Positions 27,909 to 56,390 of a stretch of DNA of 64,000 nucleotides are shown here, in pieces; the stretch's first letter is position 1, and the number at the start of each line of letters is the position of its first letter. The translations under genes and the position numbers were made by a program. Origin of the DNA: Gammaproteobacteria bacterium (GTDB taxonomy: Bacteria; Pseudomonadota; Gammaproteobacteria; DAOVJZ01); NCBI GenBank assembly GCA_029882995.1, contig JAOUJV010000001.1:11668-75667 (forward strand). Reading direction: 5' to 3'. Below the pieces are notes generated by a model. It saw only the letters and a list, made by a program, of their open reading frames with translations. It had not been told where the DNA came from and ran no database searches.

Positions 27909-27941
27909 GTTTTCTTCTCCTACTATCAGGAAAACTATAAG

Positions 27942-29441: not shown

Positions 29442-29448
29442 GAGCTCC

Positions 29449-30589: not shown

Positions 30590-30625
30590 GTTTAAATCTC
30601 CTCATCAACAAAACAAATTATTCAA

Positions 30626-30931: not shown

Positions 30932-30937
30932 TATCCC

Positions 30938-31312: not shown

Positions 31313-31332
31313 TAGTATGTCTCCCGTATCAA

Positions 31333-31725: not shown

Positions 31726-31774
31726 ATACTATCCCCTAGTACGTTTAGTTTAAGAGCTGAATGCTGCACAAATC

Positions 31775-32848: not shown

Positions 32849-32928
32849 TATTGCCTCCCAAATTATACGTTTGTAATCTTTGTTTAATGGCCTGCAGACA
32901 AGCAGGCCATTCACTCATTAGTAATTAA

Positions 32929-34245
32929 TTAGCCAGCCTTGCGAGCTTTCCACTTTTCAGCTTCAGCATCCCAATCGTCCATACGGACATAAGAACTCTG
33001 ACGTGCACTGCTAATCATGTTTGGATCCGGCTCAATACCGATACCTTCCAGGAAGTTAACCAGACCAATACGCTCAATTGTTTCACCAGTACGTTCGTGC
33101 TCAAGCGCATTTTCCGCCCAGAAATCAATGATTGTTTCAGCTAGTTCTTTCAGTGCTTCATAATCATCATCAGATTCCAGCTTCATGAATGGAACAAGAA
33201 CTGTACCCATAGTGTCACCAATCTTCAGGGTACGCTTACCACCCAGCAGAATTGTTACACCCTTGTCATCACCCGGGCTCAGTGCCTTGGTCATAACGTT
33301 GATACAATGCATGCAACGTACACAGTTACGGTTATCAACAGCCAGTGTGTCGTCATCATTCAATGACAATGCTTTAGTCGGGCAACGACTTACAACGTTA
33401 TCAACAATGTATTTACGACCCTTGTCAGCAACGTACTTCTTGACTTCTGCCTGATCAACTTTCATATCATCACGCCATGTACCAATTACAGCGAAGTCAG
33501 AACGCTGAATTGAGTTCATGCAGTCATTCGGGCAACCGGATACCTTGAACTTGAATTTGTATGGAAGAGCAGGGCGATGCATGTCATCCATAAAGTTATT
33601 AACAAGCAGACGGTGAATTTTTTGTTCGTCACAATTTGATTGTTCACAACGTGCTGCACCGATACAGGACATACCAGTACGTACGCATGGGCCGGCACCA
33701 CCAAGGTCCCAACCGTATTCGTTGATTTCATCAAAGAATGTTTGCACGTTCTGAGTAGTTGTACCGATAAACATAATGTTGCCTGTCTGTCCGTGGAATG
33801 CAATCAGACCAGAACCATGCTTATCCCATGAATCGGAAAGCTGGCGTAACATTTTTGTAGAGTAGTGATTACCAGCAGGTGGTTGCACACGAATAGTGTG
33901 GAACTCTTTAGATTCTGGGAACATAGGTTTGCCATCTGTACCCATCAATTCTGTAAAGCGAGGAATAATACCGCCGCCGTAACCAAAGACAGAAACCGTA
34001 CCACCTTTCCAGTAACCAAGACGTGTCTTGTAGGAATGCTCCAGCTGTCCAAGAAGGTCAACCATCATATTGCCAAACTTGTCTTGCATTGCCAGGCGCT
34101 TAAGACCTGTTACAAAGCTTGGCCAAGGACCTTTTTCCAGCTCATCCAGATTAGGAGTATTGTGGAATGGCTTGGATGATTTCTTCTCTGAAGGAAGATA
34201 AGTACAGTGCTTCTCAGGATTCTTTGGTTTGTCTGTTGCACTCAT
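32929..34245 (-). CDS. dsrA: Dissimilatory sulfite reductase alpha subunit (reverse, oxidative type)
   Basis: ATG at 34245 with an AGGAGG RBS. ~438 aa with siroheme-FeS binding Cys motifs. First gene of the operon. Confidence 0.92.
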   Translation of the reverse strand: MSATDKPKNPEKHCTYLPSEKKSSKPFHNTPNLDELEKGPWPSFVTGLKRLAMQDKFGNMMVDLLGQLEHSYKTRLGYWKGGTVSVFGYGGGIIPRFTELMGTDGKPMFPESKEFHTIRVQPPAGNHYSTKMLRQLSDSWDKHGSGLIAFHGQTGNIMFIGTTTQNVQTFFDEINEYGWDLGGAGPCVRTGMSCIGAARCEQSNCDEQKIHRLLVNNFMDDMHRPALPYKFKFKVSGCPNDCMNSIQRSDFAVIGTWRDDMKVDQAEVKKYVADKGRKYIVDNVVSRCPTKALSLNDDDTLAVDNRNCVRCMHCINVMTKALSPGDDKGVTILLGGKRTLKIGDTMGTVLVPFMKLESDDDYEALKELAETIIDFWAENALEHERTGETIERIGLVNFLEGIGIEPDPNMISSARQSSYVRMDDWDAEAEKWKARKAG

Positions 34246-34655
34246 TAGCAACTACCTCCTGTTTCAATTCGTTATTAACGTTATATAAACGGCGCGTACA
34301 GCACCCCATAAAAAAGCTGGGCGAATTGTAGTAAGTGTGTATGCCGCTTAGGAATTCATCTTTAGGGGTGTTTTACCTACCCCCTACCTATCCCAAACGG
34401 GATATAAGCAACCGATGTTTTGGAGTAATTGATTGATTTCAATAGTAATTACAGCAAAGCATCTTGAAGGCGCAGAATTATAGGTAAATCTTAAGGTTAT
34501 TGCACGCATTATTTCACTGGGTATTATGAGGGGGATTATATTGAGCAGGCAGTAATAATAGACGTCGTTCCAATTCCTGAGTAAAATGTTAGGGTATATT
34601 AGTTGTCATATATTTTAAGTGAGCTATATATGCCATTGTTAATAAAGAAGATATT

Positions 34656-35576
34656 ATGTCGCCAGTAGTCCAGATAAAGGTAGCGCCACCCCAAATTGAC
34701 AGCCCGTTTCATCTTGATAATGAAAAGGGGTATCAACTTTGGCGCGAGCAAAAACGGGATAACTACCCGTCAAAACCGGAAGAGTTGTTGGTTTCTGTCT
34801 CTGATCCCTTCCATATCACTGTCGACGAGCGAGGGCAGATTTTGTCGCTGTGCAGTAAGACAAATATCTCTATATATAGAACCTCACTTGAAGGAGTAGC
34901 TGATAAGGAGATCCCCAGAGCTATTGGCCATGCCTTTGGCCTGAATCGACTTGACCCGAATATGTTGGCAGATGATGATGGCATTACTTCATTGCAGGTT
35001 GTGGCCGGCAAGTCTGTGCGTGGCTACATACCGTATTCAAATAAACGGCTACTGTGGCATACCGATGGCTACTACAATACGACTGAACAGCAGATACGCT
35101 CTATTATTCTGCATTGTGTCACTCCGGCATCTGGTGATGGGGGCGAAAACGGGTTATTGGATCATGAAATGGCCTATATCCTGCTTCGAGACAGAAACCC
35201 CGACTTTATTCAGGCATTGATGGCACCGGATGCAATGACAATTCCGGCAAATGAGGAAGCGGCTGAACAGGACAGAAAATCAGTTACAGGCCCGGTGTTT
35301 TCGGTTGATTCTTCCGATGGCAGTCTCCATATGAGATATACAGCCCGTACCCGCAGTATCATATGGAAAGATAATGAAGTCACCCGTAAGGCAGTTGCGT
35401 TTTTAGGCGACTTACTCGAAAACGGCAATGACTATATATTCAATTACAAGTTGCGCGCAGGAGAAGGACTGATTTGTAACAATGTCCTGCACAAAAGAAC
35501 TGCATTTGAAAATACAGAAGGTGCAGATCGTTTGTTATATCGTGCGCGTTATTATGACCGTATCAAGCATACATAA
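34656..35576 (+). CDS. TauD/TfdA-family Fe(II)/2-oxoglutarate-dependent dioxygenase
   Basis: 306 aa with LLWHTDGYYN (HxD iron ligands) and a distal His. Divergent from dsrA. Confidence 0.6.
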   Translation: MSPVVQIKVAPPQIDSPFHLDNEKGYQLWREQKRDNYPSKPEELLVSVSDPFHITVDERGQILSLCSKTNISIYRTSLEGVADKEIPRAIGHAFGLNRLDPNMLADDDGITSLQVVAGKSVRGYIPYSNKRLLWHTDGYYNTTEQQIRSIILHCVTPASGDGGENGLLDHEMAYILLRDRNPDFIQALMAPDAMTIPANEEAAEQDRKSVTGPVFSVDSSDGSLHMRYTARTRSIIWKDNEVTRKAVAFLGDLLENGNDYIFNYKLRAGEGLICNNVLHKRTAFENTEGADRLLYRARYYDRIKHT

Positions 35577-35606
35577 TTTGATGTACAACAAATTGGACAA
35601 AAGAAC

Positions 35607-35810
35607 ATGTTATACCTGAGCGAAATATTAATGCAGCACCATGAAATAAACACTTTTGAAGAATTGCTTAAGATCATTCCTGTGGTTGCAAAAGAAAAAG
35701 GCGAAATATTTATGCATATTGATGTTAAACCACAATATGCTGATGTGCCTGCAAACTGGGAAGATAAATTAGAGGGCGCGTTTGCTGGTGTTCACTCAGT
35801 TACAAATTAA
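35607..35810 (+). CDS. small hypothetical protein
   Basis: 67 aa ORF in the same orientation between the dioxygenase and downstream genes. Confidence 0.3.
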   Translation: MLYLSEILMQHHEINTFEELLKIIPVVAKEKGEIFMHIDVKPQYADVPANWEDKLEGAFAGVHSVTN

Positions 35811-35835
35811 AAAAATTTTAAAACAGGATTTGCAA

Positions 35836-36543
35836 ATGAAATATTTAAACAGAGATCAGTCAATCATCGATGCCGATGATGCCAGTGATGCCGAGGTGCC
35901 GACTGCACAATTTGAGGCAAAAGTGCAGGCATTACAAGAACAGATGCTTTCATTACCCCCGGGACATCATCCTATGGAGAAGGCAAGGTTACAACTTGAT
36001 ATTGGTCCTTTGCTGTTAGGTCTTGAAAAAAATGAAGACGCATGGGATATCGCAAGAGATGCATTTGATGTTTATGTTGAAAATGAATCATGGGAAGGTG
36101 CTGTTATTGCCTGTGAAATTATGTTTAATGCAGATCAGACAGATTCGCTCGCAGCGTTGGGGCAAGGGGTCTGGCTGGGAGTCACTTTCCCGGATGTTGA
36201 TCCTGAACTAACTGTTGTCATGCTTGATCACATTATTGATGAAACACCGGAAGATTCAGATGGGGCGGCACTGGCCGCTGCAACAGCGAGTTATATTGTC
36301 GATTTTCGTACAGAAGGGAAGAAGCATGAAGATCTGCAGTTTTTTACAAGCCAAAGACTGGCAGAAGTTGCTCGCCGTCACAGTAATGTGGAGACGCAGG
36401 AGTCTTTTGATAAATGGGTTGAAAAGCTCGAACTAAATGACCCTGAAAAATTTCTTGTGCGTTTAAGAAATGTAGTTGATGTATTGGTGCAGGAAAGCTG
36501 GTGGATTGATCGTGAAGCTATCTGGGCAAAGCTGCCGCACTAA
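35836..36543 (+). CDS. hypothetical acidic protein
   Basis: ATG at 35836 with an AGGA RBS (MKYLNRDQSIID). ~235 aa, no recognizable motif. Confidence 0.4.
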   Translation: MKYLNRDQSIIDADDASDAEVPTAQFEAKVQALQEQMLSLPPGHHPMEKARLQLDIGPLLLGLEKNEDAWDIARDAFDVYVENESWEGAVIACEIMFNADQTDSLAALGQGVWLGVTFPDVDPELTVVMLDHIIDETPEDSDGAALAAATASYIVDFRTEGKKHEDLQFFTSQRLAEVARRHSNVETQESFDKWVEKLELNDPEKFLVRLRNVVDVLVQESWWIDREAIWAKLPH

Positions 36544-36549
36544 CTGATT

Positions 36550-37242
36550 ATGTTTTGGCAAGAAGACGATGATAAGCCCGCAGTTGCGATAACAGATGAT
36601 ATCGTTGAACTGATTTTTAAAATCAAGTGTCAGGCGATACCGGTTGATCATGCATATGCATTATCCCAATCTGTGTTAAAGGTGCTGCCGTGGCTTGAAG
36701 AAGATGGCGCCGGCTTGCATACCATTCATGTTGTCACATCCGGTAACGGCTGGATGCGCCCTGAAAACCCTGATGAGTTGCTTTATCCGTCAAAACGTAC
36801 CCGGTTTTCCTTGCGTGTCCCCAAAGAAAGAATTTCAGATGCAGAAAAACTGGATGGTGTAGAGCTTGGTATTGCCGGCAACTCACTCATTGTCAGTGAA
36901 ATGAAAATCAAGCAAATTGAACCGCATGAAACCCTTTTTTCCCGCTATCTGATAACAGATGAAATTGAAGACGAAGAAAAATTTCTGGAAGGCATTTTTG
37001 AGCAGCTGAAGTCAATGGATATACATGTCCGTAAAATGATGTGTGGCAAGGAAAATAGAATCAAAACAAATGACGGAACAATCAAAACGCGCAGCATGAT
37101 GCTGGCAGATCTGGATGATGAGGCCTCCTTAAAGCTTCAGAAAACAGGTTTAGGTTCACTCCAACACATGGGTTGTGGCCTCTTTATCCCGCATAGAGGC
37201 ATCAAGGCGGTATCCTCAATACCTTCAAGTAGCGAAAAATAG
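36550..37242 (+). CDS. Hypothetical protein with Cas6-type glycine-rich loop (GLGSLQHMGCGLFIP) near C-terminus; possible orphan Cas6f/Csy4-like RNA endonuclease
   Basis: 230 aa. The C-terminal GhGxxxxxGhG followed by hydrophobic-Pro matches the Cas6 G-rich loop signature. The N-terminal beta-alpha region (IVELIFKIKCQ ... ALSQSVLKVL) resembles the Csy4 ferredoxin fold. No CRISPR array or other cas genes in the window. Confidence 0.35.
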   Translation: MFWQEDDDKPAVAITDDIVELIFKIKCQAIPVDHAYALSQSVLKVLPWLEEDGAGLHTIHVVTSGNGWMRPENPDELLYPSKRTRFSLRVPKERISDAEKLDGVELGIAGNSLIVSEMKIKQIEPHETLFSRYLITDEIEDEEKFLEGIFEQLKSMDIHVRKMMCGKENRIKTNDGTIKTRSMMLADLDDEASLKLQKTGLGSLQHMGCGLFIPHRGIKAVSSIPSSSEK

Positions 37243-37354
37243 AGGATTTTTTCTATAGGGTTGGGATAGAGACAAAAATTGGATTAGAATATGCGCCTGT
37301 TAAATCACTGGCAGTATTTGGAATTTGTAATCTGGAGTAACAAGAGAGGAAACA

Positions 37355-37693
37355 ATGGCTTACGAAATTGATGGTAAAACTATTGAAACAGACAAGAATG
37401 GCTATCTGGTTGAAATAACCGACTGGACTGAAAATGTTGCACAAGCAATTGCCAAGGAAGAAGGTATTGAGCTAACAGATAAACATTGGGATCTGATTAA
37501 TTTCTTACGTGATGAGTACATTAACAATGGCGGCAATCAGCCCAACACACGCAAGATTGTAAAAGCGATGTCTGATAAATGGGGAGAAAACCTGGCGCAG
37601 AAAGATATCTATGCACTTTTCCCTAAAGACCCGTCCAAGCAAGGTGGTCGTATCGGTGGCTTACCTGAAAGCCGCAGAAAGGGTGGTTACTAA
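37355..37693 (+). CDS. DsrC/TusE-family protein lacking both C-terminal cysteines
   Basis: 112 aa aligning to DsrC (…WDLINFLRDEY…) but ending GGLPESRRKGGY instead of PKPTGCV. Confidence 0.65.
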   Translation: MAYEIDGKTIETDKNGYLVEITDWTENVAQAIAKEEGIELTDKHWDLINFLRDEYINNGGNQPNTRKIVKAMSDKWGENLAQKDIYALFPKDPSKQGGRIGGLPESRRKGGY

Positions 37694-37705
37694 TCACTTT
37701 ATATA

Positions 37706-37735
37706 AAAGGGCTACATTAGTAGCCCTTTGTTTTT
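37706..37735 (+). terminator. Rho-independent terminator (aagggctac atta gtagccctt + T-run)
   Basis: Perfect hairpin plus tgtttttt after the stop at 37693. Confidence 0.5.
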
Positions 37736-37750
37736 TGGAATTTCCTAAGA

Positions 37751-38605
37751 ATGTCATATACATCACTTGTTAGCACCGATGTGCTGGCGGATCATCTTTC
37801 TGATCCTGACTGGATCGTTTTTGATTGTCGATTTACCCTGACCGCACCTGATTCCGGATATGAACAATATCTGCAAGAACATATTGATGGTGCACGCTAT
37901 GCACATCTGGATAATGATCTTTCATCACCCATTGCAGAATTAACGGGTCGCCATCCATTGCCGGACAAGAATAAATTCGTGCAATGGTTAAGAAATAACG
38001 GTGTAAACAATAACTCACAAGTTGTGGTCTATGATGAAAGTTTTGGTGCTGTGGCTGGTCGTTTATGGTGGTTATTAAAATGGGCAGGACATGATGCGGT
38101 TGCACTACTGGATGGCAGTTATCCCAAATGGCGTCGTGAAGGGCACAAGACAAGTCATGATCTCCCTGTGATTACTGAATCTGATTTTAAAGCTGATTTC
38201 AAAGATGAAATGATTGCAAGTTCTGACGAGGTCCATGAGTTTGTAAAAGGTAATAAACAAGCTGTCCTTATTGATGCGCGTGCAGAAGAACGTTTTAGTG
38301 GTGAAATCGAACTGCTGGACAAGGTGGCCGGGCATATCCCTGGGGCTATCAACTTTATGTATGAAGATAATCTCGATATGGGAGGGAATCTTCTTCCTGC
38401 CGATGAATTAAAAGAACAGTTTGAAGGTTTAATGAGCGGTGTTAAACCTGAACAAGTTATCCATATGTGTGGTTCCGGAGTGACAGCTTGTCATAATATG
38501 ATCGCAATGGAAGCTGCCGGCTTATATGGCAGTAAACTTTATATCGGATCATGGAGTGAATGGATAACTGCTCCTGATCGCCCTGTTGCTACGGGTGATG
38601 AATAG
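37751..38605 (+). CDS. sseA: Tandem-rhodanese thiosulfate/3-mercaptopyruvate sulfurtransferase (SseA-like)
   Basis: 284 aa with two rhodanese domains and the active-site loop CGSGVTA. Confidence 0.8.
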   Translation: MSYTSLVSTDVLADHLSDPDWIVFDCRFTLTAPDSGYEQYLQEHIDGARYAHLDNDLSSPIAELTGRHPLPDKNKFVQWLRNNGVNNNSQVVVYDESFGAVAGRLWWLLKWAGHDAVALLDGSYPKWRREGHKTSHDLPVITESDFKADFKDEMIASSDEVHEFVKGNKQAVLIDARAEERFSGEIELLDKVAGHIPGAINFMYEDNLDMGGNLLPADELKEQFEGLMSGVKPEQVIHMCGSGVTACHNMIAMEAAGLYGSKLYIGSWSEWITAPDRPVATGDE

Positions 38606-38836
38606 ACTGCACCAATAATGCTCCTCCTGTTTGCCGAAAAATCCCCTTCTCACTACTAATTTAATACATACAGTATTTACTCAATAAAAACAGCAGGTTA
38701 TAAAATACTTAGAGCTGTTCAAAATCTTATTTCCTGTTTTTCCCGCACATTTTCTAATAGTTGTCTATAAAATTCCGATAGAAATACGTGGGTATATAAA
38801 AATGATCATTATTTGTGTGGAGAAGGACATCACTGC

Positions 38837-41800
38837 ATGGTTTCAGGCTTGCTCAATTTTGTAAAAAGGCGTGATATTAGCAAATATCATGTTGTCATCA
38901 TGGTGACAACAGTTTTGCTTGTGAGTCTTTACTGGAAGTACAACCACAACATAGAGGTCCTAAAAGAAAAATTCATTGCGCTAAGCACCAGCGAAAATCA
39001 TCAGACTGTTGATTCTATACGACATCAGTTTCGTGTGATTGAGCAGGGGCTCAGAACTATTTCACGTCTCCCTGAAATAAAAAGGATTTCACATCATAAC
39101 CCTCATCTAAGCAAAGAAACAACAATCACAGTTAATGAAATATACAGCTCGTTAACTGAGAATGTTGCAGTTTCAGAAATATACATAACTCTTGTAAATA
39201 ATAAACTCAAAAAGGGTGAATTAGAAAGACCCATTCTTGAATTCGACAATAATATTCTTGAAAATGAACATAATAATGATAACGAAGATGAAGAATACAA
39301 AGTTATAAATAGCCATATATTAACCATAAAATCCAGATTCAGTAGTTATGATATGTATGAGATACCGGATCAGGTATTGTTAATAAGCGAGGAAGTTGAA
39401 GTATGCGATGTTTCCGAAAAAGGAGTGGCAATCGATGACGAGAAAAAAAAGGGCATAGTATTGTCAAAACCTGTTTTTAATGAACAAGGCAATGTAATAG
39501 GGGTTATCTCGGGAGTGTTACGTACTGATGTAATCAGGGGAATGTTATCAGACACAGATAGCTATATAACAAACGAAAAAAACGACTTTATTATTTCTCG
39601 ATCATCGAAGATAAACGAGGAAATAAAAAATAAATCAACCGACGTTCTTTCTGGTAATAAAAATACAGTTTACTACGAGAAAATAAAAATCCCGGTAAAC
39701 TCGCTTGGTTCAGACTGGTATTTTATATCAAGCCACCCTGATAATTATTTCTGGGATCAGATATACGTAAAGCATGAGAATTTATTTTTTGCTTATTCAT
39801 CATTTGTAATAATTCTGTTAAGTGGTTTTGCCATGATTTACTTACACAGAAGAGAAACAATAAGAAGGGCGGAAGAGGAAACGCTTCGTCAAGCATCACA
39901 CTTAAGCGCAGTATTCAATACGGTTCTTGAATCAATAATAACAATTGATGAAAAGGGTACAATTATAGATTGCAATCCTGCGATTGAGTTTTTATCAGGC
40001 TATATGGTTGAGGAGCTAAAAGGGTGTAATGTAAACATGCTGATGCCTCAATCAATTGCCAAACATCATGACTTATATCTTAAGAATTATATAAAGACTG
40101 GCGTTCCTGGAATAATTGGTGTTGGAAGAGAAGTTGAACTACGTCATAAAGATGGTCACCTTGTCCCCGTCGACCTTTCAGTGACCGAGTTTAAAAAAGG
40201 TGATACTAATTATTTTGTCGGCACCCTCAAAGACATATCCGTACAAAAAGAAATGATCGGCATCGTAGAAAAAGCCCGTGATACTGCGCTCGAATCTTCC
40301 AGAATTAAATCTGAATTCTTGTCCAACATGAGCCATGAATTACGCACACCGATGAATGGCATCATTGGCTTTATACAGCTTCTGGAAGATACAAAGCTCG
40401 ATGATGAGCAGAAGGCCTATCTGGATACAATTCTGGATTCAGCAAATGGCCTGATGACAATCATTAATGATGTACTGGATTTTACTCGCCTAGGTGCCGG
40501 GAAGATACGTATAGAAAACACTGATTTTAATTTAAGAATGACCGTCGACAGCCTTGTAGACTTTTTTAAATATCAGACTGAGTGCAGCAGAATAAAACTA
40601 CAGGGACAAATATCATCAAGAGTGCCCATGCAGCTTGTTGGTCCGCCGGGAAGATTGCGACAGATACTGGTGAATTTCATCAGTAACGCATTTAAATACA
40701 CTGAGCAGGGAGAGATAAATATCAGAGTAAATATGCTGGAAGAGCATGATGATTATGTTTTATTAATCACTGAAGTCGAGGATACAGGCGTTGGTATTAC
40801 AGAAGAAAATCAGAAGCTCATTTTTGATTCATTCAGGCAGGTTGACAGCTCTATAACCAGGCAACATCAGGGGCTTGGGCTTGGGTTGGCAATTACAAAA
40901 TCACTGGTTGAAATGATGGGGGGGGAAATCGGGGTTAAAAGCGAACCGGGAAAAGGAAGTACATTTTGGTTTACTATGCAACTAGGGAAGGCAGATCTGC
41001 CTTCATATAACAATGAATCCATATCATTGCTAAATGGTAAGTCGATTCTTGTTATTGACGATGATGCTGAATCGGCAGAATCATTACAATACAAACTTGG
41101 TACCTGTCATGCAATCACAGAAACAGTTTTTTCTCCTCTAGATGCCATTCAATTACTACGCGACAAATCCATTACCGAACACCCGTTTGACATGATTATT
41201 ATTGACGTTAAATCAGGATTGATAGATTGGCGCGATATTGTAACTACGATTAATAAAGATGAACTAATCAAGCCTGTTCGAAAGGTAGTGCTGACCTCTT
41301 CCGGGCAAAGAGGTTTTGGTGATCTTGCAAAACAAATTGGTGTTATGGCTTATATTACAAAACCGGTCGATGATAATGGCTTATTGACTGCCTTGAGTAT
41401 GGTGCTTAACAAGGAGCCGGATGACACGAGTTCGCTGATAACTAAATACACGATAAGTGAATATTGTGCGAAGCAATCTGGCCGCATACTGGTTGTTGAT
41501 GACAATATCACCTCGCAGAAAGAGGTGACACATGTGCTTTTAACAGATGGATTACGTTCAGATGTTGCTTGTTCAGATGCGGATGCGCTATTGTCACTTG
41601 ATCATATTGAATACAGCATGATAATCATTAATTCCGCATCGGGACAGGTCAATATTGAGGAATTTGTTTCTAATGTTCGAATTCACGACAAAGTCAGTAA
41701 CATTTCACACCCCATTATTGCACTGGTCGATAAAAATGACAGCATTATGACAGAACGGTGTATGAAGGCCGGGGTGGATGATGTCCTGATGTACCCCTTT

Positions 41801-47101: not shown

Positions 47102-47899
47102 ATGAAGGTTTTAAGGAGTGTTTCACTAGCAGTATTTGCGATTGTATTGAGCAATTCGTTCATCTCACAAGCATCAGCAACACCGATCACAACCAGTTTC
47201 GAAACCACAGTTCAATCTACTTCGGGTATTCCGGGAGTTAATGTGGGGGACAATTTTTCTGCTTCTTTTACCTTTGATAACGATGAAACTGCAGCCAGCT
47301 CTGTTTTATCACCTATATGTGGTTTCGGTGGATGTTTTAAAACATATCGTTTTACAGATCCCGTTTATACAGGCAATGTATCTACACCAAGTTTAAATTA
47401 CAGCTCAGATGGTGGCATAGCAGTAGGTGTTTTTAACGACTTCACAATGCCATCAGGTCTTTTTGGTTCTAGCTATGAACTTGGCATTTTGGGCAATCCA
47501 GACATCTATGACTTCATCATGATTGGTGGCGGATGGGGAAGTATTGGGGAAAATATAGATTTATCAGGTAACACAACTAATATCTCTGAAATTGGATTTA
47601 GCTTATTATTTATTGGTAATTCAAATCTAATTTCTGATACTTCGTTGCCATTATCAATTGACGAATTATTATCTGATCCAGATTTTATTGGTTCTGCGCT
47701 TTTATTATCACTATATGAACTACAACAAGCTTCTTCTTTCTGCTCAGGTACTAATTCTTGTTTAGGTGGTGGAGGGGTTCCTGTTGAAATAGCCCATATA
47801 TACGGCGAAGAAGTCAGTGCAATACCCACACCCGCAACCCTGTTATTGATTGCGCCCGGTCTTCTGGCTCTGGTAAAATTGTCCAAGAGAAATAACTAA
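47102..47899 (+). CDS. PEP-CTERM sorting-domain secreted protein (exosortase substrate)
   Basis: Signal peptide and C-terminal IPTPATLLLIAPGLLALVKLSKRNN (P-[TE]-P motif, TM helix, basic tail). Ser/Gly/Thr-rich. AT-rich. Confidence 0.65.
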   Translation: MKVLRSVSLAVFAIVLSNSFISQASATPITTSFETTVQSTSGIPGVNVGDNFSASFTFDNDETAASSVLSPICGFGGCFKTYRFTDPVYTGNVSTPSLNYSSDGGIAVGVFNDFTMPSGLFGSSYELGILGNPDIYDFIMIGGGWGSIGENIDLSGNTTNISEIGFSLLFIGNSNLISDTSLPLSIDELLSDPDFIGSALLLSLYELQQASSFCSGTNSCLGGGGVPVEIAHIYGEEVSAIPTPATLLLIAPGLLALVKLSKRNN

Positions 47900-48188: not shown

Positions 48189-49661
48189 TTATTTCTGTGG
48201 TTCTATAAAAGCCCACCCCAGTTTCACGGGTGGGTTTTTTTCATTAAAGCGTCGCCATTTAAAGGTAACTGGCGTTTGTATTTCAATATTCGGGTATCGA
48301 TTAAGCCAGTCTACAGGTAGACTTTCGCCATCAATAGATACATCCCAAACCAGTACAGCGCCTTTGGTGAGAAAATCCTGTTTATCTATCCAGCCACTGC
48401 GTTTGTCTTCCATCTGAACATAAACAGAAGGTCGATCTTTCGAGTAAAAGGCAACATTACCACCAAGTGATAAACGTGCAACGACATATTCTAATGGTGC
48501 ATTAAATCGTTTATGCCATTCATTGGTAAAGAAAGTGCCGATTTCATTACCCGGGAAATGAGCGCGCTCGCGCAATTTAATAGTAAGTTGCGTAATGTAG
48601 GCGCTAACAATAAAGGCAGAAACAATCAGTAGGGTAATCAGAAAACGTTTAAAGTTTTTAATTCCAATATCCGGCCTGAAATAGATCATCAACAGTACGC
48701 CTGCAAGAAACCATGCCGGAGTGCCCCACATGGATTTCAGCCGCATTCCAAAAATAGCAGAAAGCAAAAGCATAATAACAAACGGTCCCAGGCCAATTAT
48801 CCATGGAAAAGGATCAGATTTTCCGGCACGTGGAAACGCAGGCTGTCCTGCTTTAAGGGCAATAAAGGCAATCAGGCAGAATAAAACAGCCAGTAATTGC
48901 GAGCCGGCGAACTTAATAGGGTAATACAGGTTGGCAAAGTCCGCTTTTTCTGCAGTTGATCGATCCAGTCCATAGGTAATGGTAGTGAAATCATTTTGCG
49001 TTACCCAGTAAAGGTGAGGGCTGATAATGAATATGCCTAATACGATGGCCAGATACAAACCAGGTTGTCTGAATGTTTTACGATAGGCGTGTGTGCTTAA
49101 TAAGACTGCAAACATGGAAAGAAACAAAAATGCAGTGTGGTATTTTGCCAGCACTGAAAGCCCTGCAAACAAACCACAAGCCAGCCAGTATTTTATATCA
49201 CCTCTTACCAGTGAATAACGAAATACCAGAACTGTCAGTGGCCATAATCCAAGCAATAATACATTGGGATTAAATTCAGGTGAGGTGAAGTTGTAATAAT
49301 AAACGCCTTCAAGCAATACCACGGCGATCAGTGAACGTGCCTCATTCAACCATTCATGTGCGAGCTTCCAGACCGCCCAGAAACCTGCCACGATACAAAG
49401 CTGACTTAACAGAAAATAGGACCAGAGCTGATTGCCGGATAATGTAACCGCTATTTCAGCCAGCCATGCAGAAAGTGGCGGGTGGCGTTCATAGCCAAGC
49501 TGCCATTCATGTCCCCATGTGATGGTTTCTGATGCATCAATGGGCATGTTGGGATGAAACAGAACTGGCAGCAAGGTCCAGACAATCAAATGCAGAATAA
49601 TAAAACGCCAGAATAGTTTTTGTGGATCACTATTAAGCGTTTGACAAAGCGCGTTAAACAT
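48189..49661 (-). CDS. GT-C family membrane glycosyltransferase (ArnT/PMT-like, GT39/GT83; candidate polyprenyl-phospho-arabinose-dependent arabinosyltransferase)
   Basis: 490 aa with ~11 TM helices. The N-terminal loop has the DxE-type motif region typical of ArnT/PMT enzymes. Located in a DPA-like pathway operon. Confidence 0.65.
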   Translation of the reverse strand: MFNALCQTLNSDPQKLFWRFIILHLIVWTLLPVLFHPNMPIDASETITWGHEWQLGYERHPPLSAWLAEIAVTLSGNQLWSYFLLSQLCIVAGFWAVWKLAHEWLNEARSLIAVVLLEGVYYYNFTSPEFNPNVLLLGLWPLTVLVFRYSLVRGDIKYWLACGLFAGLSVLAKYHTAFLFLSMFAVLLSTHAYRKTFRQPGLYLAIVLGIFIISPHLYWVTQNDFTTITYGLDRSTAEKADFANLYYPIKFAGSQLLAVLFCLIAFIALKAGQPAFPRAGKSDPFPWIIGLGPFVIMLLLSAIFGMRLKSMWGTPAWFLAGVLLMIYFRPDIGIKNFKRFLITLLIVSAFIVSAYITQLTIKLRERAHFPGNEIGTFFTNEWHKRFNAPLEYVVARLSLGGNVAFYSKDRPSVYVQMEDKRSGWIDKQDFLTKGAVLVWDVSIDGESLPVDWLNRYPNIEIQTPVTFKWRRFNEKNPPVKLGWAFIEPQK

Positions 49662-49666
49662 TTACT

Positions 49667-50404
49667 TTAGAGCTTCAGTTTCTTAAAGATGAATTCAGGG
49701 ATGTGCATAATAACTAACATAATAAAACGCCAGAACCACGGCAGGTAAACAACCTCTTTTTTCTTTTTAATAGCTCGGATGATGCCTTGGGCAATAGTTT
49801 CCGGTTTTGCCCATAATGGCCCTTTAGGAAATTCTTTTGTCATCGGTGTGTCAACAAATCCCGGCTTGATGGTTAAAACCTGTACATTACTGTCATGCAA
49901 ACGATTGCGTAATCCCTGCATAAAGATGGAAACAGCCCCCTTGGCAGTTCCGTAGATATAATTGCTCTGACGACCACGATCTCCGGCCACCGATGAGATA
50001 ACCGCAATCGTGCCGTTACGTTCATGTTCAAAATAATTGGCGCAGGATGTGAGCAATGAAAGAATGCTCAGACAGTTGGTATCCAGTTCCTTGTAGGTTT
50101 TATCCCATGATTGTTGGCAATCCGATTGATCGGGCAGGGTACCGTGTGCAACTAACACAATATCAAGGCCTGTCATGGCATCGACACATTCCTTAATTAA
50201 ATCCTCATGCTGTTCGCTGTCTGTCATATCCAGTACTTTTGTATGGACAGAAGCAGCACCGCGGGTCTTGAGATCAGTTGAAATGATGTCCAGTTTTTCA
50301 CTGTTGCGTGCAACCAGATATAAATCATTACCTTCAGAGGCAAATAATCGGGCTGTTGCGATAGCAATGGTGGAAGTAGCACCAATAATTAATATTTTAC
50401 TCAT
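49667..50404 (-). CDS. Short-chain dehydrogenase/reductase (DprE2-like decaprenylphospho-2-keto-ribose reductase candidate)
   Basis: 245 aa with Rossmann motif IIGATSTIAIATA and the catalytic YxxxK region. Immediately downstream of the DprE1-like gene. Confidence 0.65.
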   Translation of the reverse strand: MSKILIIGATSTIAIATARLFASEGNDLYLVARNSEKLDIISTDLKTRGAASVHTKVLDMTDSEQHEDLIKECVDAMTGLDIVLVAHGTLPDQSDCQQSWDKTYKELDTNCLSILSLLTSCANYFEHERNGTIAVISSVAGDRGRQSNYIYGTAKGAVSIFMQGLRNRLHDSNVQVLTIKPGFVDTPMTKEFPKGPLWAKPETIAQGIIRAIKKKKEVVYLPWFWRFIMLVIMHIPEFIFKKLKL

Positions 50405-51715
50405 CTATACAGTTACTCTACGCCAGAAGCTGGAAGAAAAATGGGGATCAATATATTGACTGAATTTTTCCCAGTTCGGATAAAAATGTTTGAAATTGTC
50501 GGCTGACATGCGTGCATCCTTGGCGGGGTATAGGCGTCCTCCCGCATTTTTTAAAAGTATATCGAGATTATCCAGCAGTTCGAATGTTTTTTTATACCGG
50601 TTAGGAAAGTCCAGTGCCAGTGTAATGCCGGGTTCCGGAAAGGACAGCATACCGGGCGAGCTAATATCACCAAACACTTTTAATACACTCAAAAAGGAGC
50701 CGGAACGGGCGCGACTGATCTCATTCAGGATATTACGTACAGCTTCCTTTCCATGTTCATGCGGAATAACACATTGGTACTGGAGAAATCCTGCCTTACC
50801 ATACATTCGATTCCAGTGATTGATGCCATCAAGCGGGTAAAAAAACGGTTCGTAATGCTGTGTGCCTTGCCAACGCCGCAGAAACTGTTTGTTGTAATAA
50901 AGCAGATTAAACGCCTTGAGTGTGTAGCTGTTTAATAATGAAAAAGGCAACTCAACAGGAAAACCCGGTTTTCTTCCCGGTGAACGTGGTGGATCAGAAC
51001 TCAGTTCAGTTGCATGATTGGCGCGTATGAAAAACCCGCGCCCCAATGCGTCACCTTTTGCCAGACAATCAATCCATGCCACGGTATATTCAAATAGATC
51101 ATTGGATTCTTCAGAGAGTTCAAAAAATTCGTCAAGGTTGGAAAAACGGATAGATTCCACGTTCATGTGAGGAGTATGTATTTTTTGTAACCGGAGCTCT
51201 GCCCAAAGGATAACGCCGGTTAAACCTAGCCCGCCAATTGTGGCTTCATACATCTCCTGGTTCTCGGGTGGAGAACATACCAGTCGTGTTCCATCTGAAC
51301 GCTGTAATTCAAATTGATTAACAAATCTTCCAAAAGTACCGTTGCGATGATGATTTTTGCCATGCACATCGTTGGCAATCGCGCCACCTACAGTGATAAA
51401 TCGGGTTCCGGGAGTAACAGGTAAAAACCATCCCTTGGGAACAATCAGCTCCAGAATCTCTGAAAGTAAAACACCTGCTTCACACCGTAATATGCCTGAT
51501 TCTGTATCAAAATGAATAAAGTGATCCAGTCCGCGTGCATCAAGCAGAATACCGTCATTATTTAAACATGAGTCACCATAACTGCGCCCATTACCAAATG
51601 GCAAAAGTGGTTTGTTTAAATAATTCGGCCAACTGTCTGTGAGCCAGTGCAGTTTATGTATTTCATGCTCTGCTCTGGGATAACCGCCCCATGATCGATA
51701 ACGCGAATCACTCAT
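50405..51715 (-). CDS. FAD-linked oxidase, DprE1/GlcD-like (decaprenylphosphoryl-beta-D-ribose 2'-oxidase candidate)
   Basis: Start MSDSRYRSWGGYP overlaps the UbiA stop (ATGA). Motif GNGRSYGDSCL with FAD_binding_4 and a C-terminal ALO-like domain. Confidence 0.65.
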   Translation of the reverse strand: MSDSRYRSWGGYPRAEHEIHKLHWLTDSWPNYLNKPLLPFGNGRSYGDSCLNNDGILLDARGLDHFIHFDTESGILRCEAGVLLSEILELIVPKGWFLPVTPGTRFITVGGAIANDVHGKNHHRNGTFGRFVNQFELQRSDGTRLVCSPPENQEMYEATIGGLGLTGVILWAELRLQKIHTPHMNVESIRFSNLDEFFELSEESNDLFEYTVAWIDCLAKGDALGRGFFIRANHATELSSDPPRSPGRKPGFPVELPFSLLNSYTLKAFNLLYYNKQFLRRWQGTQHYEPFFYPLDGINHWNRMYGKAGFLQYQCVIPHEHGKEAVRNILNEISRARSGSFLSVLKVFGDISSPGMLSFPEPGITLALDFPNRYKKTFELLDNLDILLKNAGGRLYPAKDARMSADNFKHFYPNWEKFSQYIDPHFSSSFWRRVTV

Positions 51716-52578
51716 GATGCCAACCAGAAAATAACAGCACCTATACAAGCTATCAAGATACTTGCGTAATCACGTAATGCAAACACCACCGGATCATCAT
51801 GCATTTCACCGCGATGTGTTTTGAGCCAGATTCGGCTTATCCAGTATAGAAAGAGAGGGCAAAGTAGCCAGACATACTCAGGATGTGTGTAGAGTATCTT
51901 GATATTGGGGCTGTCGATATAAAGCGCCAGGATCAGGACAGAAATAAATCCACTTCCAATACCCATTGTACGTAATAAGGATAGATCACCGGATTGATAT
52001 CCCCGACCGGCTAATTGACTCTTGTCAATGGACTGCATTAATAACAGTTCTGAGTAACGCTTGACCAACGCAAGACTAAAGAAAATAAAAATGGAAAAAT
52101 TCAGCAGCCAGAATGATAGCTCTATATTCACCACATAGGCACCGGCGATTATGCGTAGGGTGTATAAGCCTGCCAACAATAAAACATCAATTAATGCGAT
52201 AGATTTGAGTTTCAGTGAATAGCCCAATGTAACCGCAAAATAGAGACCAAGAACCATAAAAAACTGGATAGACAGTTGCATGGCAATAACGGTGCTTGCC
52301 AGCAACAATAAGGCCGCTATTATGATCCCGTGAATGACAGGAACACTGTTGGAAGCAAAGGGACGGTGACGTTTGGTAGGATGCTGTCTGTCCGCTTCCA
52401 GATCGGCCAGGTCATTAATCATATAAACTGCCGAGGCACAGAGTGAGAAAGAGAAAAAGGCCTCAATAAGTAAAATAACAGATTCTGTGTCAGCCAGCTT
52501 ATGTGCGGTGATCAAGGGCACAAACAATAAAAGATTCTTTACCCACTGATGAAAACGAAAAAGTTTTAAATAAGCCAT
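51712..52578 (-). CDS. UbiA-family prenyltransferase (decaprenyl-phosphate 5-phosphoribosyltransferase Rv3806c-like)
   Basis: 288 aa with eight TM helices and the UbiA motif NDLADLEADRQHPTKRHRPFAS. Confidence 0.65.
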   Translation of the reverse strand: MAYLKLFRFHQWVKNLLLFVPLITAHKLADTESVILLIEAFFSFSLCASAVYMINDLADLEADRQHPTKRHRPFASNSVPVIHGIIIAALLLLASTVIAMQLSIQFFMVLGLYFAVTLGYSLKLKSIALIDVLLLAGLYTLRIIAGAYVVNIELSFWLLNFSIFIFFSLALVKRYSELLLMQSIDKSQLAGRGYQSGDLSLLRTMGIGSGFISVLILALYIDSPNIKILYTHPEYVWLLCPLFLYWISRIWLKTHRGEMHDDPVVFALRDYASILIACIGAVIFWLAS

Positions 52579-52603
52579 AGAATGAATTATATGTTAGTTC
52601 CGT

Positions 52604-53542
52604 TTATTGTCCCGTTCTTCTTTCCAGTAGCAACATGAAAACTATACCGATAACAACAGCAAACCATAATGTGGCTATACGACATACCAGCGTTGCTGTA
52701 ATTGCGACAGGTATTGATACACCGGCAAGGATCAATAATCCTCCCATTGCCGCTTCGGCACTACCCAACCCACCGGGGATAAAGGAAATGGCGCCGGCAA
52801 TCATGCTGGCGCCATAAATACCGATGGCGACGGGTAAACTGATTTCAGCGCCCAAAAACTCAAGAATATAATAAAAGGCGACACCTTCGGCTCCCCACGC
52901 AATAATACCTGTCAATAATGAGCCAAGCAAAATCCGGCGTTTCATTAAATCCAGAGAATGCTGAGCCATGCCGAGTAAATTTCCTACCAGTGATTTTTCA
53001 GATAATCGCAAATGACGTGACAACCAAAACCTGACTTTATCCATGACAGGATCTGTTGCGAGAATAATCAGTAGGGCAAAGACAAGAAAGGCGAACAGGT
53101 AGAAGCCCCAGTTGAAATCTTCAACCCAGTAAATCAGCAGTGCCGCCAGAATGAGCACGGCAAACACATCCAGAATACGTTCGGTAATCAAGGCGGCCAG
53201 ACTTTGTTTATAACCGACGCCATATTGGTGTAAATACACGGAGCGAATTGCTTCACCTGCCTTCCCGGGTGTTGTTGTAAAAGCAAATCCCGCCAGATAA
53301 CACATCAAGTTTCTGGAAACGGGGATGTGATAACCAAGAGCACCAAGGTATATATGCCAGCGAAAAAAACGCAGTGCATAGTTAAAAATTGATAATCCAA
53401 AAACAAGGATCAACTGCAGGAATGTGAATGAATTCAGTTTTTCGGTGATTTGCTGGTGATCAGAAAGTGCTATGGATGCGGCATACATGGCCATAGCTAT
53501 AAGTGATGAAAAAATGAGCAACTGCCGCTTTTTCGTTTGCAC
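52604..53542 (-). CDS. UPF0104 / lysylphosphatidylglycerol-synthase-TM-like flippase-family membrane protein
   Basis: 312 aa polytopic membrane protein of the TIGR00374 type, commonly co-encoded with glycosyltransferases. Confidence 0.5.
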   Translation of the reverse strand: MQTKKRQLLIFSSLIAMAMYAASIALSDHQQITEKLNSFTFLQLILVFGLSIFNYALRFFRWHIYLGALGYHIPVSRNLMCYLAGFAFTTTPGKAGEAIRSVYLHQYGVGYKQSLAALITERILDVFAVLILAALLIYWVEDFNWGFYLFAFLVFALLIILATDPVMDKVRFWLSRHLRLSEKSLVGNLLGMAQHSLDLMKRRILLGSLLTGIIAWGAEGVAFYYILEFLGAEISLPVAIGIYGASMIAGAISFIPGGLGSAEAAMGGLLILAGVSIPVAITATLVCRIATLWFAVVIGIVFMLLLERRTGQ

Positions 53543-53676
53543 GCTAAAATCCGCTTAATTAATGGTTGTTATTATTTATATATATCAGCAAGTTACAATC
53601 GCTAGTTAAAGTGGTTCTGCCCTCAATAATTCATCATTCTAACCGATAACATACATATTAATACGATAAATCATGT

Positions 53677-54432
53677 GTGAACCTAAATACAGTAATGGTA
53701 CTCATAAGACTCATGACATTGAACGTCATTTATATACTGCGTTCTATTTACAGAAAGGCTCAACTCAAACCGTTGGGCCTGTTCTTTATTCTATGCGCCA
53801 GTTCTGTGTTTGCTGATGTCTATGGCATCAGTGAAAGTCTGCTCGATTACATAAACAGAAATTACGGCGATCAGGCTAAAACCAGACTGGTTGACTGGCG
53901 TGATATTATTCAGAAACAAAAATACAAAAGCCTGTCTGAGCAGGAAAAACTAAGTCTGGTGAATGACTTTTTTAATCAGGTCAGATTTGTAGATGATATT
54001 GATCACTGGAATAAAGAAGATTACTGGGCTACACCGATAGAAATGTTGTCAACCAATGGCGGCGATTGTGAGGACTTCTCAATTGCCAAATATTTTACGT
54101 TAAAGGCCTTGAACGTACCGGTTGACCGTATGCGTCTGACTTATGTTAAATCAATTGTGTTAAAACAGGCTCATATGGTGCTTGCCTATTACCCGACTCC
54201 TGATGCCGAACCCTTGATTCTGGATAACTTAATGGATGAAATTCGTCCTGCATCGAACAGAAAAGATCTGGTACCTGTTTACAGCTTTAATGGTGATGGC
54301 TTATGGTTGTCCAGAGAACGAGGAGAAGGTAAACGGGTCGGTGAGTCAAGTCGTCTGGGTTTATGGAATGAACTTGCAAAAAGGATGAAAAAAGAACAGG
54401 ATTCCAAACGTTTACCAGAGGGGAAAAAATGA
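53677..54432 (+). CDS. lapG: Bacterial transglutaminase-like cysteine proteinase (LapG-like periplasmic protease)
   Basis: Signal peptide with Cys NGGDCEDFSIAKY, His AHMVLAYY and an Asp triad. Overlaps the downstream lapD-like gene start. Confidence 0.7.
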   Translation: MNLNTVMVLIRLMTLNVIYILRSIYRKAQLKPLGLFFILCASSVFADVYGISESLLDYINRNYGDQAKTRLVDWRDIIQKQKYKSLSEQEKLSLVNDFFNQVRFVDDIDHWNKEDYWATPIEMLSTNGGDCEDFSIAKYFTLKALNVPVDRMRLTYVKSIVLKQAHMVLAYYPTPDAEPLILDNLMDEIRPASNRKDLVPVYSFNGDGLWLSRERGEGKRVGESSRLGLWNELAKRMKKEQDSKRLPEGKK

Positions 54433-56390
54433 GTTTGTTCAAAAAATTGGGGATTGTTATCTCACTGCTCTTCCTGATGGTGTTCACGGGTACCATGTTT
54501 ATCGGTGTTAATGCGACACGGATCTATATGCAGGAACAACTGACTTCCCATGCACAGGATGCCGCCACTTCTCTGGGCTTATCCATTACCCATGCTGTCA
54601 AAAGCAATGACAAGGCAACCATGGATACCATGGTGAATGCCATTTTTGACAGTGGCTATTATCGTGACCTGACGATCAAATCCATGAAAGACGAAGTGCT
54701 AATCAAAAAGGAATCGCCTGTCAGAATAGAAAATGTCCCGACCTGGTTCGTTAATGCGGTACCATTGGAGTCACCTCTCGGAACTTCCATAGTCATGGAT
54801 CAATGGTCACAGATAGCACAAATCGAAATTCACAGTCATCCTGGTTATGCCTACATCAGATTATGGAACACTGCGCTTGAAACACTGACATGGTTCGGGA
54901 TTGGGTGGTTAACAGCCATGCTTCTGGTAATGCTGGTGCTGAAAATCACGTTATTACCTCTGCGGCGCATGGAAGAACAGGCCATTTCAATCAGTAACCG
55001 TGATTTTGTTACAGTTGAAAAAATACCCGGCACAAGAGAATTCCGCCGTGTTGTAATGGCGATGAACAAGATGTCCGATTCCATCAAGACTATTGTTGAA
55101 CAGCAAATCAAGCTGAGTGAAAGAATGCGTCAGGAGGCCAATCAGGACTCTCTGACCATGCTGGCGAATCGGCGCAGTTTTAATGCCAGAATGAAACAGC
55201 TTCTGGATTCGCCAGATCAGTTTGTTTTCGGCGCATTGTTATTACTGCAATTACCAAAGTTCAAAAAGTTCAATGAGCAAAAAGGGCATGAAAGCGGTGA
55301 TGAATTACTGCGCAATATAGCCAAACAGTTAACTATTAATACTAAATTTCTCAGCAATCCTGTTATCGCAAGACTGGATGGCGCCAGTTTTGCAATTCTT
55401 GCCAGCGATTTAACACCACAGGAATCAGAGCAACTGGCTGAACAAATCAGGCAGGATTTAATTCGCATTCATAATATCAATGGTGAGTACGCAGCAAGCA
55501 ATATCGGTGTTGTTTATTATGATCGCCGTAAAGGTGATAAACACACAGTAAGTGAATTGTTGTCAGAAGCAGATATGGCAATGCGAGCAGCACAAAAGCG
55601 GGGGGCCGACTGCTGGCACATGTATGCCAGAGAAAATCTTGGACGGGATGAAATCTTTACGGCACGCAAATGGAAAGAGATACTGGAAAAAACCATTCAT
55701 TCACACGGGTTTACATTGCATGGGCAGCCGGTTGTTTCTGCCAAAACAGGTATTGCTCAACAGCGTGAGATATTTGCGCGTATTTCAGATGGCGATTCCC
55801 ATTTTGTTCCTGCCAATGTCTTCATGCCTATGGTGGAACGTTGGGATCTTTCTGTTGATCTCGATATGTCTATTATCGAATCTGTTATCAAGCACATGAA
55901 AAACAGACCAACGGAAAGCATCTGTTATTCAATTAATATTTCACCTTCGTCAATACGCAGTCGTCGTTTTGCAGACTGGCTGGCAAAAATTATTATTGAG
56001 TCCGGTATTGCACCTGACCGGCTGCATTTTGAATCATCAGAAAATGGTGCCATCATCGATCTTGAGGCCTTGCATGCCTTTGCAGGCAAGATTCGTGCGA
56101 CAGGTGTTGCATTTTCGCTTGATCACTTCGGTACCGGTTTCCGTTCATTTGGTTATTTGCGGGATCTCAAACTCTACTCAATCAAGATCGACGGCAGTTA
56201 TATTCATGATATTGACAAAAACAAGGATAACCAGTTCTTTGTGCAATCACTGGTAGAAATTGCGCATGGGCTTGGTATTAAGGTTATGGCTGAATCAGTG
56301 GAAACACCGAATGAATGGGAAGAGTTAAAACGCATTGGTGTCGATAATATTCAGGGCTATATTAACGGCAAACCGGAGCCGCTAAAATAA
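54429..56390 (+). CDS. lapD: LapD-like inner-membrane c-di-GMP receptor (TM-periplasmic domain-TM-HAMP-degenerate GGDEF-EAL)
   Basis: 653 aa with two TM helices flanking a periplasmic domain. GGDEF signature degenerated to RLDGASF. The EAL domain has DHFGTGFRSF and KIDGSYI. Confidence 0.7.
   Translation: MSLFKKLGIVISLLFLMVFTGTMFIGVNATRIYMQEQLTSHAQDAATSLGLSITHAVKSNDKATMDTMVNAIFDSGYYRDLTIKSMKDEVLIKKESPVRIENVPTWFVNAVPLESPLGTSIVMDQWSQIAQIEIHSHPGYAYIRLWNTALETLTWFGIGWLTAMLLVMLVLKITLLPLRRMEEQAISISNRDFVTVEKIPGTREFRRVVMAMNKMSDSIKTIVEQQIKLSERMRQEANQDSLTMLANRRSFNARMKQLLDSPDQFVFGALLLLQLPKFKKFNEQKGHESGDELLRNIAKQLTINTKFLSNPVIARLDGASFAILASDLTPQESEQLAEQIRQDLIRIHNINGEYAASNIGVVYYDRRKGDKHTVSELLSEADMAMRAAQKRGADCWHMYARENLGRDEIFTARKWKEILEKTIHSHGFTLHGQPVVSAKTGIAQQREIFARISDGDSHFVPANVFMPMVERWDLSVDLDMSIIESVIKHMKNRPTESICYSINISPSSIRSRRFADWLAKIIIESGIAPDRLHFESSENGAIIDLEALHAFAGKIRATGVAFSLDHFGTGFRSFGYLRDLKLYSIKIDGSYIHDIDKNKDNQFFVQSLVEIAHGLGIKVMAESVETPNEWEELKRIGVDNIQGYINGKPEPLK

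Follow-up and report, generated by a model that had tools for sequence, protein, structure and literature searches.

The analysed stretch of DNA (64 kb of contig JAOUJV010000001.1 from an uncultured gammaproteobacterium; hereafter, the window) contains two overlapping genes, which code for a LapG-like protease and a LapD-like receptor of cyclic di-GMP (c-di-GMP). It is likely, with a probability of roughly 0.8, that these genes form a functional lapG–lapD operon acting as the canonical Lap inside-out switch. Its substrate would be encoded elsewhere, either as a LapA-like adhesin of a type I secretion system (T1SS), or as a CdrA-like two-partner secretion (TPS) adhesin. The gene structure, the domain architecture, the key residues and their conservation were observed directly in the window and in its relatives. 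In the literature, a Lap system is operationally defined by the presence of C93 and LapD_MoxY_N domains (PMC10990149), and both are found in the pair studied here.

Organization of the lapG–lapD Gene Pair

The stop codon of lapG and the start codon of lapD share 4 bp (ATGA), and a Shine-Dalgarno-like run, GAGGGG, lies just 5' of the lapD start. Given this overlap and the run upstream of the second start, it is plausible that lapG and lapD are co-transcribed and translationally coupled. An alternative lapG start, the ATG at 53695 (245 amino acids, aa), is used by gene callers on four metagenome contigs, the DNA of which is identical to that of the window. Samples with exact copies of both genes are ENA ERZ27296342 and ERZ27296354 and JGI 3300022205 and 3300022223. 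The order of the genes, lapG and then lapD, is kept in 12 out of 12 related loci examined. The G+C content of lapG (0.41) and lapD (0.44) agrees with the level of the window (0.43) and thus gives no hint of recent transfer. A promoter and terminator scan of the locus was uninformative: the consensus promoter search yielded no convincing site on the + strand and fewer promoter-like sites than were found in shuffled sequences, and the terminator-like matches fall within genes.

A preliminary description of this DNA, made from the sequence alone, had proposed two translationally coupled open reading frames (ORFs). Both were found in place, together with the motifs quoted for LapG (GGDCEDF at aa 128–134, including C131, and AHMVLAYY at aa 165–172, including H166) and for LapD (RLDGASF at aa 315–321, DHFGTG at aa 565–570, and KIDGSY at aa 586–591). 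The LapG/LapD architecture that it assigned to the pair is borne out by the Pfam and NCBIfam domains, the PDB matches and the key residues of both proteins, as described below.

The LapG-Like Protease

Bioinformatics analysis revealed that the product of the first gene belongs to the Peptidase_C93 family (E = 4e-12; 46.6 bits against a Pfam gathering cut-off of 27). Its sole NCBIfam match is "cysteine protease LapG" (1e-70), which is covered from position 38 to 215 of the 221 model positions. Among proteins of known structure, it matches LapG of Pseudomonas fluorescens (4u65_E; 9e-56, 52% identity) and LapG of Legionella pneumophila (Lpg0828; 4fgo_A; 1e-53, 48% identity), both of which have been characterised biochemically.

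A Cys-His-Asp triad and a calcium site have been described for LapG (PMC4359373). The residues of this triad correspond to C131, H166 and D183 of the window protein, and all three are identical in the alignments with both structures. The acidic GDCED cluster and an upstream stretch of the form D..D.W...DYW.TPIE are also common to the window LapG and to both crystallised LapGs. At the N-terminus, the sequence and a hydropathy scan point to a basic n-region (RSIYRKAQLK) followed by a hydrophobic core at aa 30–46 (PLGLFFILCASSVFA), which ends in VFA, with a likely cleavage after A46. The protein thus looks like one that is exported to the periplasm via a Sec signal peptide.

Architecture of the LapD-Like Receptor

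The product of the second gene has the domain order transmembrane segment, LapD_MoxY_N, transmembrane segment, HAMP, degenerate GGDEF and EAL, with the periplasmic domain flanked by hydrophobic segments within aa 1–30 and 152–181. Among NCBIfam models, "cyclic di-GMP receptor LapD" ranks first (2e-152) and is matched over positions 1–646 of 647. HAMP is represented by a weaker match, which lies just under the Pfam cut-off and at the expected position (Table 1). The output domain matches the structures of L. pneumophila CdgS9 (4u64; 8e-29) and of LapD (3pjv; 1e-25), and the cytoplasmic module is closest, among PDB entries, to P. fluorescens LapD (3pjw; 7e-52).

The ungapped alignment with 3pjw was used to map the P. 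fluorescens numbering, and the offset was checked at F222, S229, E230, L232 and M252 (PMC3032553). On this scale, S230 of the window protein corresponds to S229, D263 to the occluding E262, and R451 to R450 of the c-di-GMP site. The Trp that anchors LapG is W126, the counterpart of W125 in P. fluorescens LapD and of W126 in CdgS9.

Two other assignments were considered and rejected. The second-best NCBIfam match is CsrD of Escherichia coli (257 bits), which shares the degenerate TM-HAMP-GGDEF-EAL architecture; the score of the LapD model is twice as high, and, unlike CsrD, which controls the decay of small RNAs without a partner protease, the window lapD overlaps a LapG gene at its start. A MoxY-like assignment was likewise dismissed; here, too, the overlapping LapG gene was taken into account.

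Points against a Canonical Switch

Several findings weigh against a canonical switch. Both proteins score under the NCBIfam equivalog cut-offs (237.2 bits against 320 for LapG, and 508.5 bits against 1020 for LapD). The loop equivalent to GWxQ, which has been called strictly conserved (PMC4359373), reads QWSQ (LapD aa 125–128; 54801..54812). The EAL domain keeps 7/7 of the RocR Mg-binding and catalytic positions that serve as the criterion of an intact EAL site (PMC2952852), which in the window protein are E447, N503, E535, E538, D565, K586 and E622. Finally, no ABC (ATP-binding cassette) exporter, HlyD/AprE, OEP/TolC or adhesin-repeat domain was detected by Pfam in the window ORFs of at least 150 aa.

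Because of the scores, the proteins are named here LapG-like and LapD-like and are not treated as equivalogs of the Pseudomonas proteins. As for the loop, conservation was assessed in an alignment of the window LapD with its 120 best database relatives (37–100% identity; counts below are out of these 121 sequences). The loop Trp is invariant (121/121) and the Gly is present in 113 sequences; in the clade that is 79–100% identical to the window LapD, the position of the Gly is taken by Q, N, G or K.

The EAL and GGDEF Sites: Receptor or Enzyme

The GGDEF signature of the window LapD is DGASF, and the residues that immediately precede it do not form an RxxD I-site. Degeneracy extends throughout the relatives, since the 15 most frequent variants of the signature do not include GG[DE]EF; the degenerate GGDEF domain of the preliminary description is therefore well founded.

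The EAL domain was aligned with LapD as well as with PA0861 and the "motility regulator", which are GGDEF-EAL proteins of P. aeruginosa. Apart from the seven positions listed above, it also retains R451, D588 and Q642. Three contacts of c-di-GMP (Q433, R451 and D588) are kept, and the fourth recognition position is H566. The latter is the sole loss of the domain: His stands in place of the second Asp of DDFG, with which the conserved DFG(T/A)GYSS loop begins. At this position (equivalent to D296), Asp is absent from all 121 sequences, which have His (104), Asn (7), Gln (5) or Arg (5) instead. The catalytic and binding residues elsewhere in the domain vary very little, and 105 sequences keep all seven positions listed above. 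It was thus correctly noted beforehand that the EAL domain retains c-di-GMP binding motifs, but this wording understates the case, as all of the catalytic and Mg positions are retained as well.

A pocket that is conserved but for one position, at which Asp never occurs, fits a non-hydrolysing, ligand-binding receptor, although it does not amount to proof; because H566 is the only change, the receptor-only status of LapD is put forward as a prediction. On balance, the sequence favours an EAL domain that acts as a c-di-GMP receptor rather than as an enzyme. It is unlikely that the LapD-like protein is an active or conditionally active phosphodiesterase, that is, a "trigger enzyme" that degrades c-di-GMP and also controls LapG. 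The preservation of the seven PMC2952852 positions together with R451, D588 and Q642 would suit such an enzyme; in P. fluorescens LapD, two of the seven are missing (it has KVL in place of EAL and QRFGGR in place of DDFGTG). On the other hand, the second DDFG Asp is His in the window protein, its absence from all 121 sequences within conserved surroundings suggests that the catalytic arrangement has been selected against, and characterised LapD proteins are without catalytic activity (PMC3032553).

Proposed Mechanism

Under the favoured reading of a functional lapG–lapD operon, the binding of c-di-GMP, the capture and proteolytic action of LapG and the nature of its substrate are predicted from homology only. 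At high cytoplasmic levels, c-di-GMP would bind to the EAL domain of LapD and release the autoinhibited arrangement of the S-helix, GGDEF and EAL. HAMP would relay the signal across the membrane, so that the periplasmic LapD dimer could capture LapG through W126. A fall in c-di-GMP would free LapG, and the Ca-dependent protease would then cut a surface adhesin at a di-alanine site; the adhesin would be shed, allowing the cell to detach. The substrate would be either a CdrA-like TPS adhesin or a T1SS-exported adhesin of the LapA type that has a retention module at its N-terminus.

Search for a Substrate in the Window

The window was searched by tblastn with the adhesin, ABC, membrane fusion protein (MFP) and outer membrane protein (OMP) of a relative, with zero matches. 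Searches with TPS/ShlB proteins, a small RTX protein and a secreted protein of 412–414 aa encoded near lapD in two relatives (see below) gave no substrate candidate and, in particular, no homologue of the latter protein. When window ORFs of at least 100 aa were scanned for [TAP]AA[GV], no genuine ORF contained the motif; the single match lies in a spurious antisense ORF inside dsrA. The two largest ORFs of the window encode a hybrid histidine kinase and a defence-island protein. Together with the Pfam result, the tblastn searches and the motif scan confirm over 64 kb what had been said of the window before, namely, that it holds neither a LapA-type adhesin nor a T1SS.

The same description had named a nearby PEP-CTERM surface protein as a speculative target of LapG. 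This protein of 265 aa (Table 1) carries the C-terminal sequence IPTPATLLLIAPGLLALVKLSKRNN, which is similar to a PEP-CTERM sorting signal (IPTP, a hydrophobic helix, and KLSKRNN). It matches no Pfam or NCBIfam model, contains TAAS but no [TAP]AA[GV], and is conserved only at residues 4–104 (57%) in the relative with 79% LapD identity, in which the neighbouring genes are 74–82% identical. With no family, no cleavage consensus and poor conservation, the candidate was rejected as unsupported.

More generally, LapG might cut a non-canonical Sec-exported substrate, such as the 265-aa protein or some surface protein that the arabinose-lipid/GT-C glycosylation cluster next to lapGD modifies. This would agree with a window devoid of canonical substrates, with the signal peptide and PEP-CTERM-like tail of the 265-aa protein, with the presence of the glycosylation cluster next to lapGD in the 79% relative too, and with two relatives (L011 and L016) in which lapGD is directly upstream of a polysaccharide-export locus, albeit one whose genes score under the cut-offs. 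The synteny of the glycosylation cluster carries little weight, however, because it is confined to very close relatives; the window has no homologue of the 412–414-aa protein of L011 and L016, and the shortcomings of the 265-aa protein (no family model, TAAS in place of the consensus, and conservation limited to one segment) stand against this explanation, which we regard as very unlikely. A broader version of it, equally conditional, is only slightly less doubtful and still very unlikely: the switch may have been uncoupled from T1SS adhesins in a Granulosicoccaceae-like lineage, where it would govern a Sec-exported PEP-CTERM-type or glycosylated protein linked to the arabinose-lipid/GT-C cluster. 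If so, the relaxed Gly of GWxQ would reflect a re-tuned LapD–LapG interface.

The chance is also very slim that lapGD is an evolutionary leftover that has no substrate in the genome and is heading to decay. The lack of a substrate in 64 kb could be read in this way, as could a relaxation of the GWxQ Gly that is specific to the closest clade (Q, N, G or K). Nevertheless, both ORFs are intact and occur as identical copies in four metagenome assemblies, the relatives of 79–82% identity keep the full length and every other key residue, and an apparently orphan pair in P. aeruginosa has a distal target.

lapGD Loci in Related Genomes

In relatives, the context of lapGD was inspected within 10 kb to either side of lapD; the percentages below are identities to the window LapD. 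An adhesin and/or a T1SS is adjacent in four out of about 10 lineages, a TPS candidate is found nearby in one, and neither is found in five. The classical locus is that of L012 (41%), with a 1933-aa cadherin/Big_9 adhesin bearing an N-terminal ...GEATAAGAGSG and with ABC, MFP and OMP genes. An RTX protein and a T1SS are encoded in L014 (40%), an ABC exporter in L006 (36%), and an OMP and adhesin-like repeats in L007 (27%). In L013 (44%), a TPS passenger is encoded beside a ShlB-type transporter, 3.7–9 kb from lapGD. It contains a single PAAG at residue 1243, 42 residues from the C-terminus, followed by two Cys, a layout that makes it a candidate CdrA-type, LapG-cleavable type Vb substrate.

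Among the loci with no such genes, L010 (79%) and L005 (80%) are arranged as in the window; the closest relative in the species genome collection is a Granulosicoccaceae metagenome-assembled genome (MAG) with 80% identity, on a contig of 5.4 kb. No adhesin or T1SS was found within ~10 kb in L008 (42%, a Nitrospinota MAG) and L015 (39%). In L011 (45%) and L016 (39%), the polysaccharide-export locus downstream of lapGD comprises EpsL-like, Wzc-like and exosortase-associated-ligase-like genes, all of them under the score cut-offs. In both loci, it is preceded by the conserved secreted protein of 412–414 aa (48% identity between the loci), which has no Pfam or NCBIfam match and is encoded 195 bp downstream of lapD in L011 and ~2.5 kb downstream in L016, where a GGDEF-EAL gene intervenes. 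This arrangement is mildly suggestive of a shared role in biofilms and is not evidence for the 265-aa protein as a substrate.

Comparison with Known Lap Systems

With an adjacent T1SS or adhesin in only four of about 10 lineages, and with experimentally resolved cases in P. aeruginosa and Vibrio cholerae, an orphan pair is not unusual: lapGD without an adjacent adhesin is a common and already documented arrangement. The best precedent is P. aeruginosa LapG/LapD (PA1434/PA1433), which, like the window pair, has no LapA homologue nearby; its target, the TPS adhesin CdrA, is encoded elsewhere (PMC4694147). Only L013 among the relatives has a comparable nearby TPS protein with a C-terminal PAAG. 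In V. cholerae (VCA1081/VCA1082-3, with the adhesins FrhA and CraA), the adhesin genes are similarly distant, frhA and lapGD being located on different chromosomes, and LapG cuts PAAG and AAAG sites in a Ca-dependent manner (PMC6890996). The V. cholerae LapD EAL domain also keeps the Glu of the EAL motif and has D-N at the DDFG position. On the other hand, T1SS genes resembling lapB and lapC (VCA1080 and VCA1084) lie on both sides of lapGD in V. cholerae and are lacking in the window, and LapD is split into two genes in the El Tor biotype, whereas it is single in the window. Different substrates have been predicted by Navarro et al. for systems without a clear LapA (PMC3032553).

The operon and the domain order resemble those of P. 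fluorescens Pf0-1 (Pfl01_0130/0131; PDB 3pjt–3pjx and 4u65), as do the LapG triad with its acidic cluster, the anchor Trp and degenerate GGDEF of LapD, and the equivalents of S229, E262 and R450. The Pf0-1 pair differs in adjoining lapA and lapEBC and in having GWxQ instead of QWSQ, and its EAL domain is far more degenerate than that of the window LapD (KVL and QRFGGR vs. EIF and DHFGTG). In L. pneumophila, the periplasmic domain of CdgS9 is the best PDB match of the window domain and its Trp even bears the same number, while its loop has the canonical form GWMQ. In Desulfovibrio vulgaris, a LapG-like protease under c-di-GMP control (DvhG/DvhD) releases a LapA-like adhesin (PMC10990149). DvhD has a degenerate HD-GYP domain and no LapD_MoxY_N, in contrast to the window protein, which is of the classical LapD type.

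Table 1. Coordinates of the features discussed in the text (window positions, unless a related locus is named).
Feature	Coordinates	Strand	Description and basis
lapG-like gene	53677..54432	+	GTG start, 251 aa; BTLCP/Peptidase_C93 protease, predicted to be periplasmic and Ca-dependent; family and PDB matches
Predicted LapG Sec signal peptide	53677..53814	+	Hydropathy scan and sequence
LapG catalytic triad codons	C131 54067-54069 (in GDCED); H166 54172-54174; D183 54223-54225	+	Alignments with 4u65_E and 4fgo_A
lapD-like gene	54429..56390	+	653 aa; predicted inner-membrane c-di-GMP receptor
LapD_MoxY_N, periplasmic output domain	54498..54866	+	aa 24-146; Pfam 8e-43, 145.7 bits; holds W126 (54804-54806)
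HAMP	54942..55088	+	aa 172-220; Pfam E = 3.8e-5, 24.4 bits (cut-off 25 bits)
Degenerate GGDEF	55137..55607	+	aa 237-393; Pfam 5e-28; signature at aa 317-321
EAL	55680..56375	+	aa 418-649; Pfam 1e-54; H566 codon 56124-56126
Intergenic region, lapG to divergent flippase-like gene	53543..53676		134 bp, A+T-rich; presumed lapGD promoter, by position only
Five genes divergent from lapG	48189..53542	-	Flippase-like (LPG_synthase_TM), UbiA-type decaprenyl-phosphate phosphoribosyltransferase-like, DprE1-like, DprE2-like, GT-C (PMT_2)
Secreted PEP-CTERM-like protein	47102..47899		265 aa; signal peptide; directly after tRNA-Ser(TGA)
Secreted protein near lapD in relatives	L011 12154..13398; L016 14495..15733		412-414 aa
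TPS passenger of L013	17415..21269	-	1284 aa
dsrAB-like sulfite reductase subunits	31775..34251	-	
dsrMKJOP-like genes	23444..30375	-	
Molybdopterin oxidoreductase set	11621..15837		
NapC/NirT-type cytochrome and cytochrome cd1 nitrite reductase (nirS)	15873..18660		
A+T-rich island	424..4928		G+C 0.33-0.34; candidate anti-phage system
PDC-M60A-like ORF	424..3309		961 aa; PADLOC candidate defence protein, 3e-22
ORF between PDC-M60A and PDC-M60C	3312..3758		148 aa; probably M60B, by position
PDC-M60C-like ORF	3759..4928		389 aa; 8e-67; PNP_UDP_1 nucleosidase-type domain
ORF upstream of Cas6	35782..36543		253 aa; no family match
Cas6-family protein	36550..37242		Pfam Cas6, 7e-60

Genomic Neighbourhood and Host

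The five genes divergent from lapG look like a polyprenyl-phospho-arabinose-type glycosylation pathway, and the same cluster adjoins lapGD in L010. On the 3' side of lapD, a convergent gamma-glutamyltransferase gene is followed by a uvrY-like regulator, a UDG-family gene, uvrC, pgsA and tRNA genes.

The window also carries sulfite reductase and dsrMKJOP-like genes, a molybdopterin oxidoreductase set and nirS with an accompanying cytochrome. These sulfur and nitrogen genes (11621..34251) identify the host, an uncultured marine gammaproteobacterium, as a sulfur-oxidising denitrifier.

At one end of the window, an A+T-rich island has a G+C content well below the 0.43 of the window and may represent an anti-phage system; its largest ORF (961 aa) matches no Pfam or NCBIfam model. 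A Cas6-family protein is encoded separately, just downstream of a 253-aa ORF; no CRISPR-like direct repeats were found in 34200..38900, and no other cas gene was recognised near it.

Implications

The finding of lapGD is useful for annotation and unsurprising, and it leaves the view of the Lap system unchanged. Two details of LapD are of modest value. The Gly of GWxQ, although called strictly conserved, appears to be dispensable in at least one clade, and an EAL domain that is conserved except for one never-Asp position in 121 environmental LapD relatives constitutes a testable enzyme-to-receptor signature. With this pair, an uncultured sulfur oxidiser from sediment joins the bacteria that are predicted to control surface attachment by c-di-GMP-gated periplasmic proteolysis.

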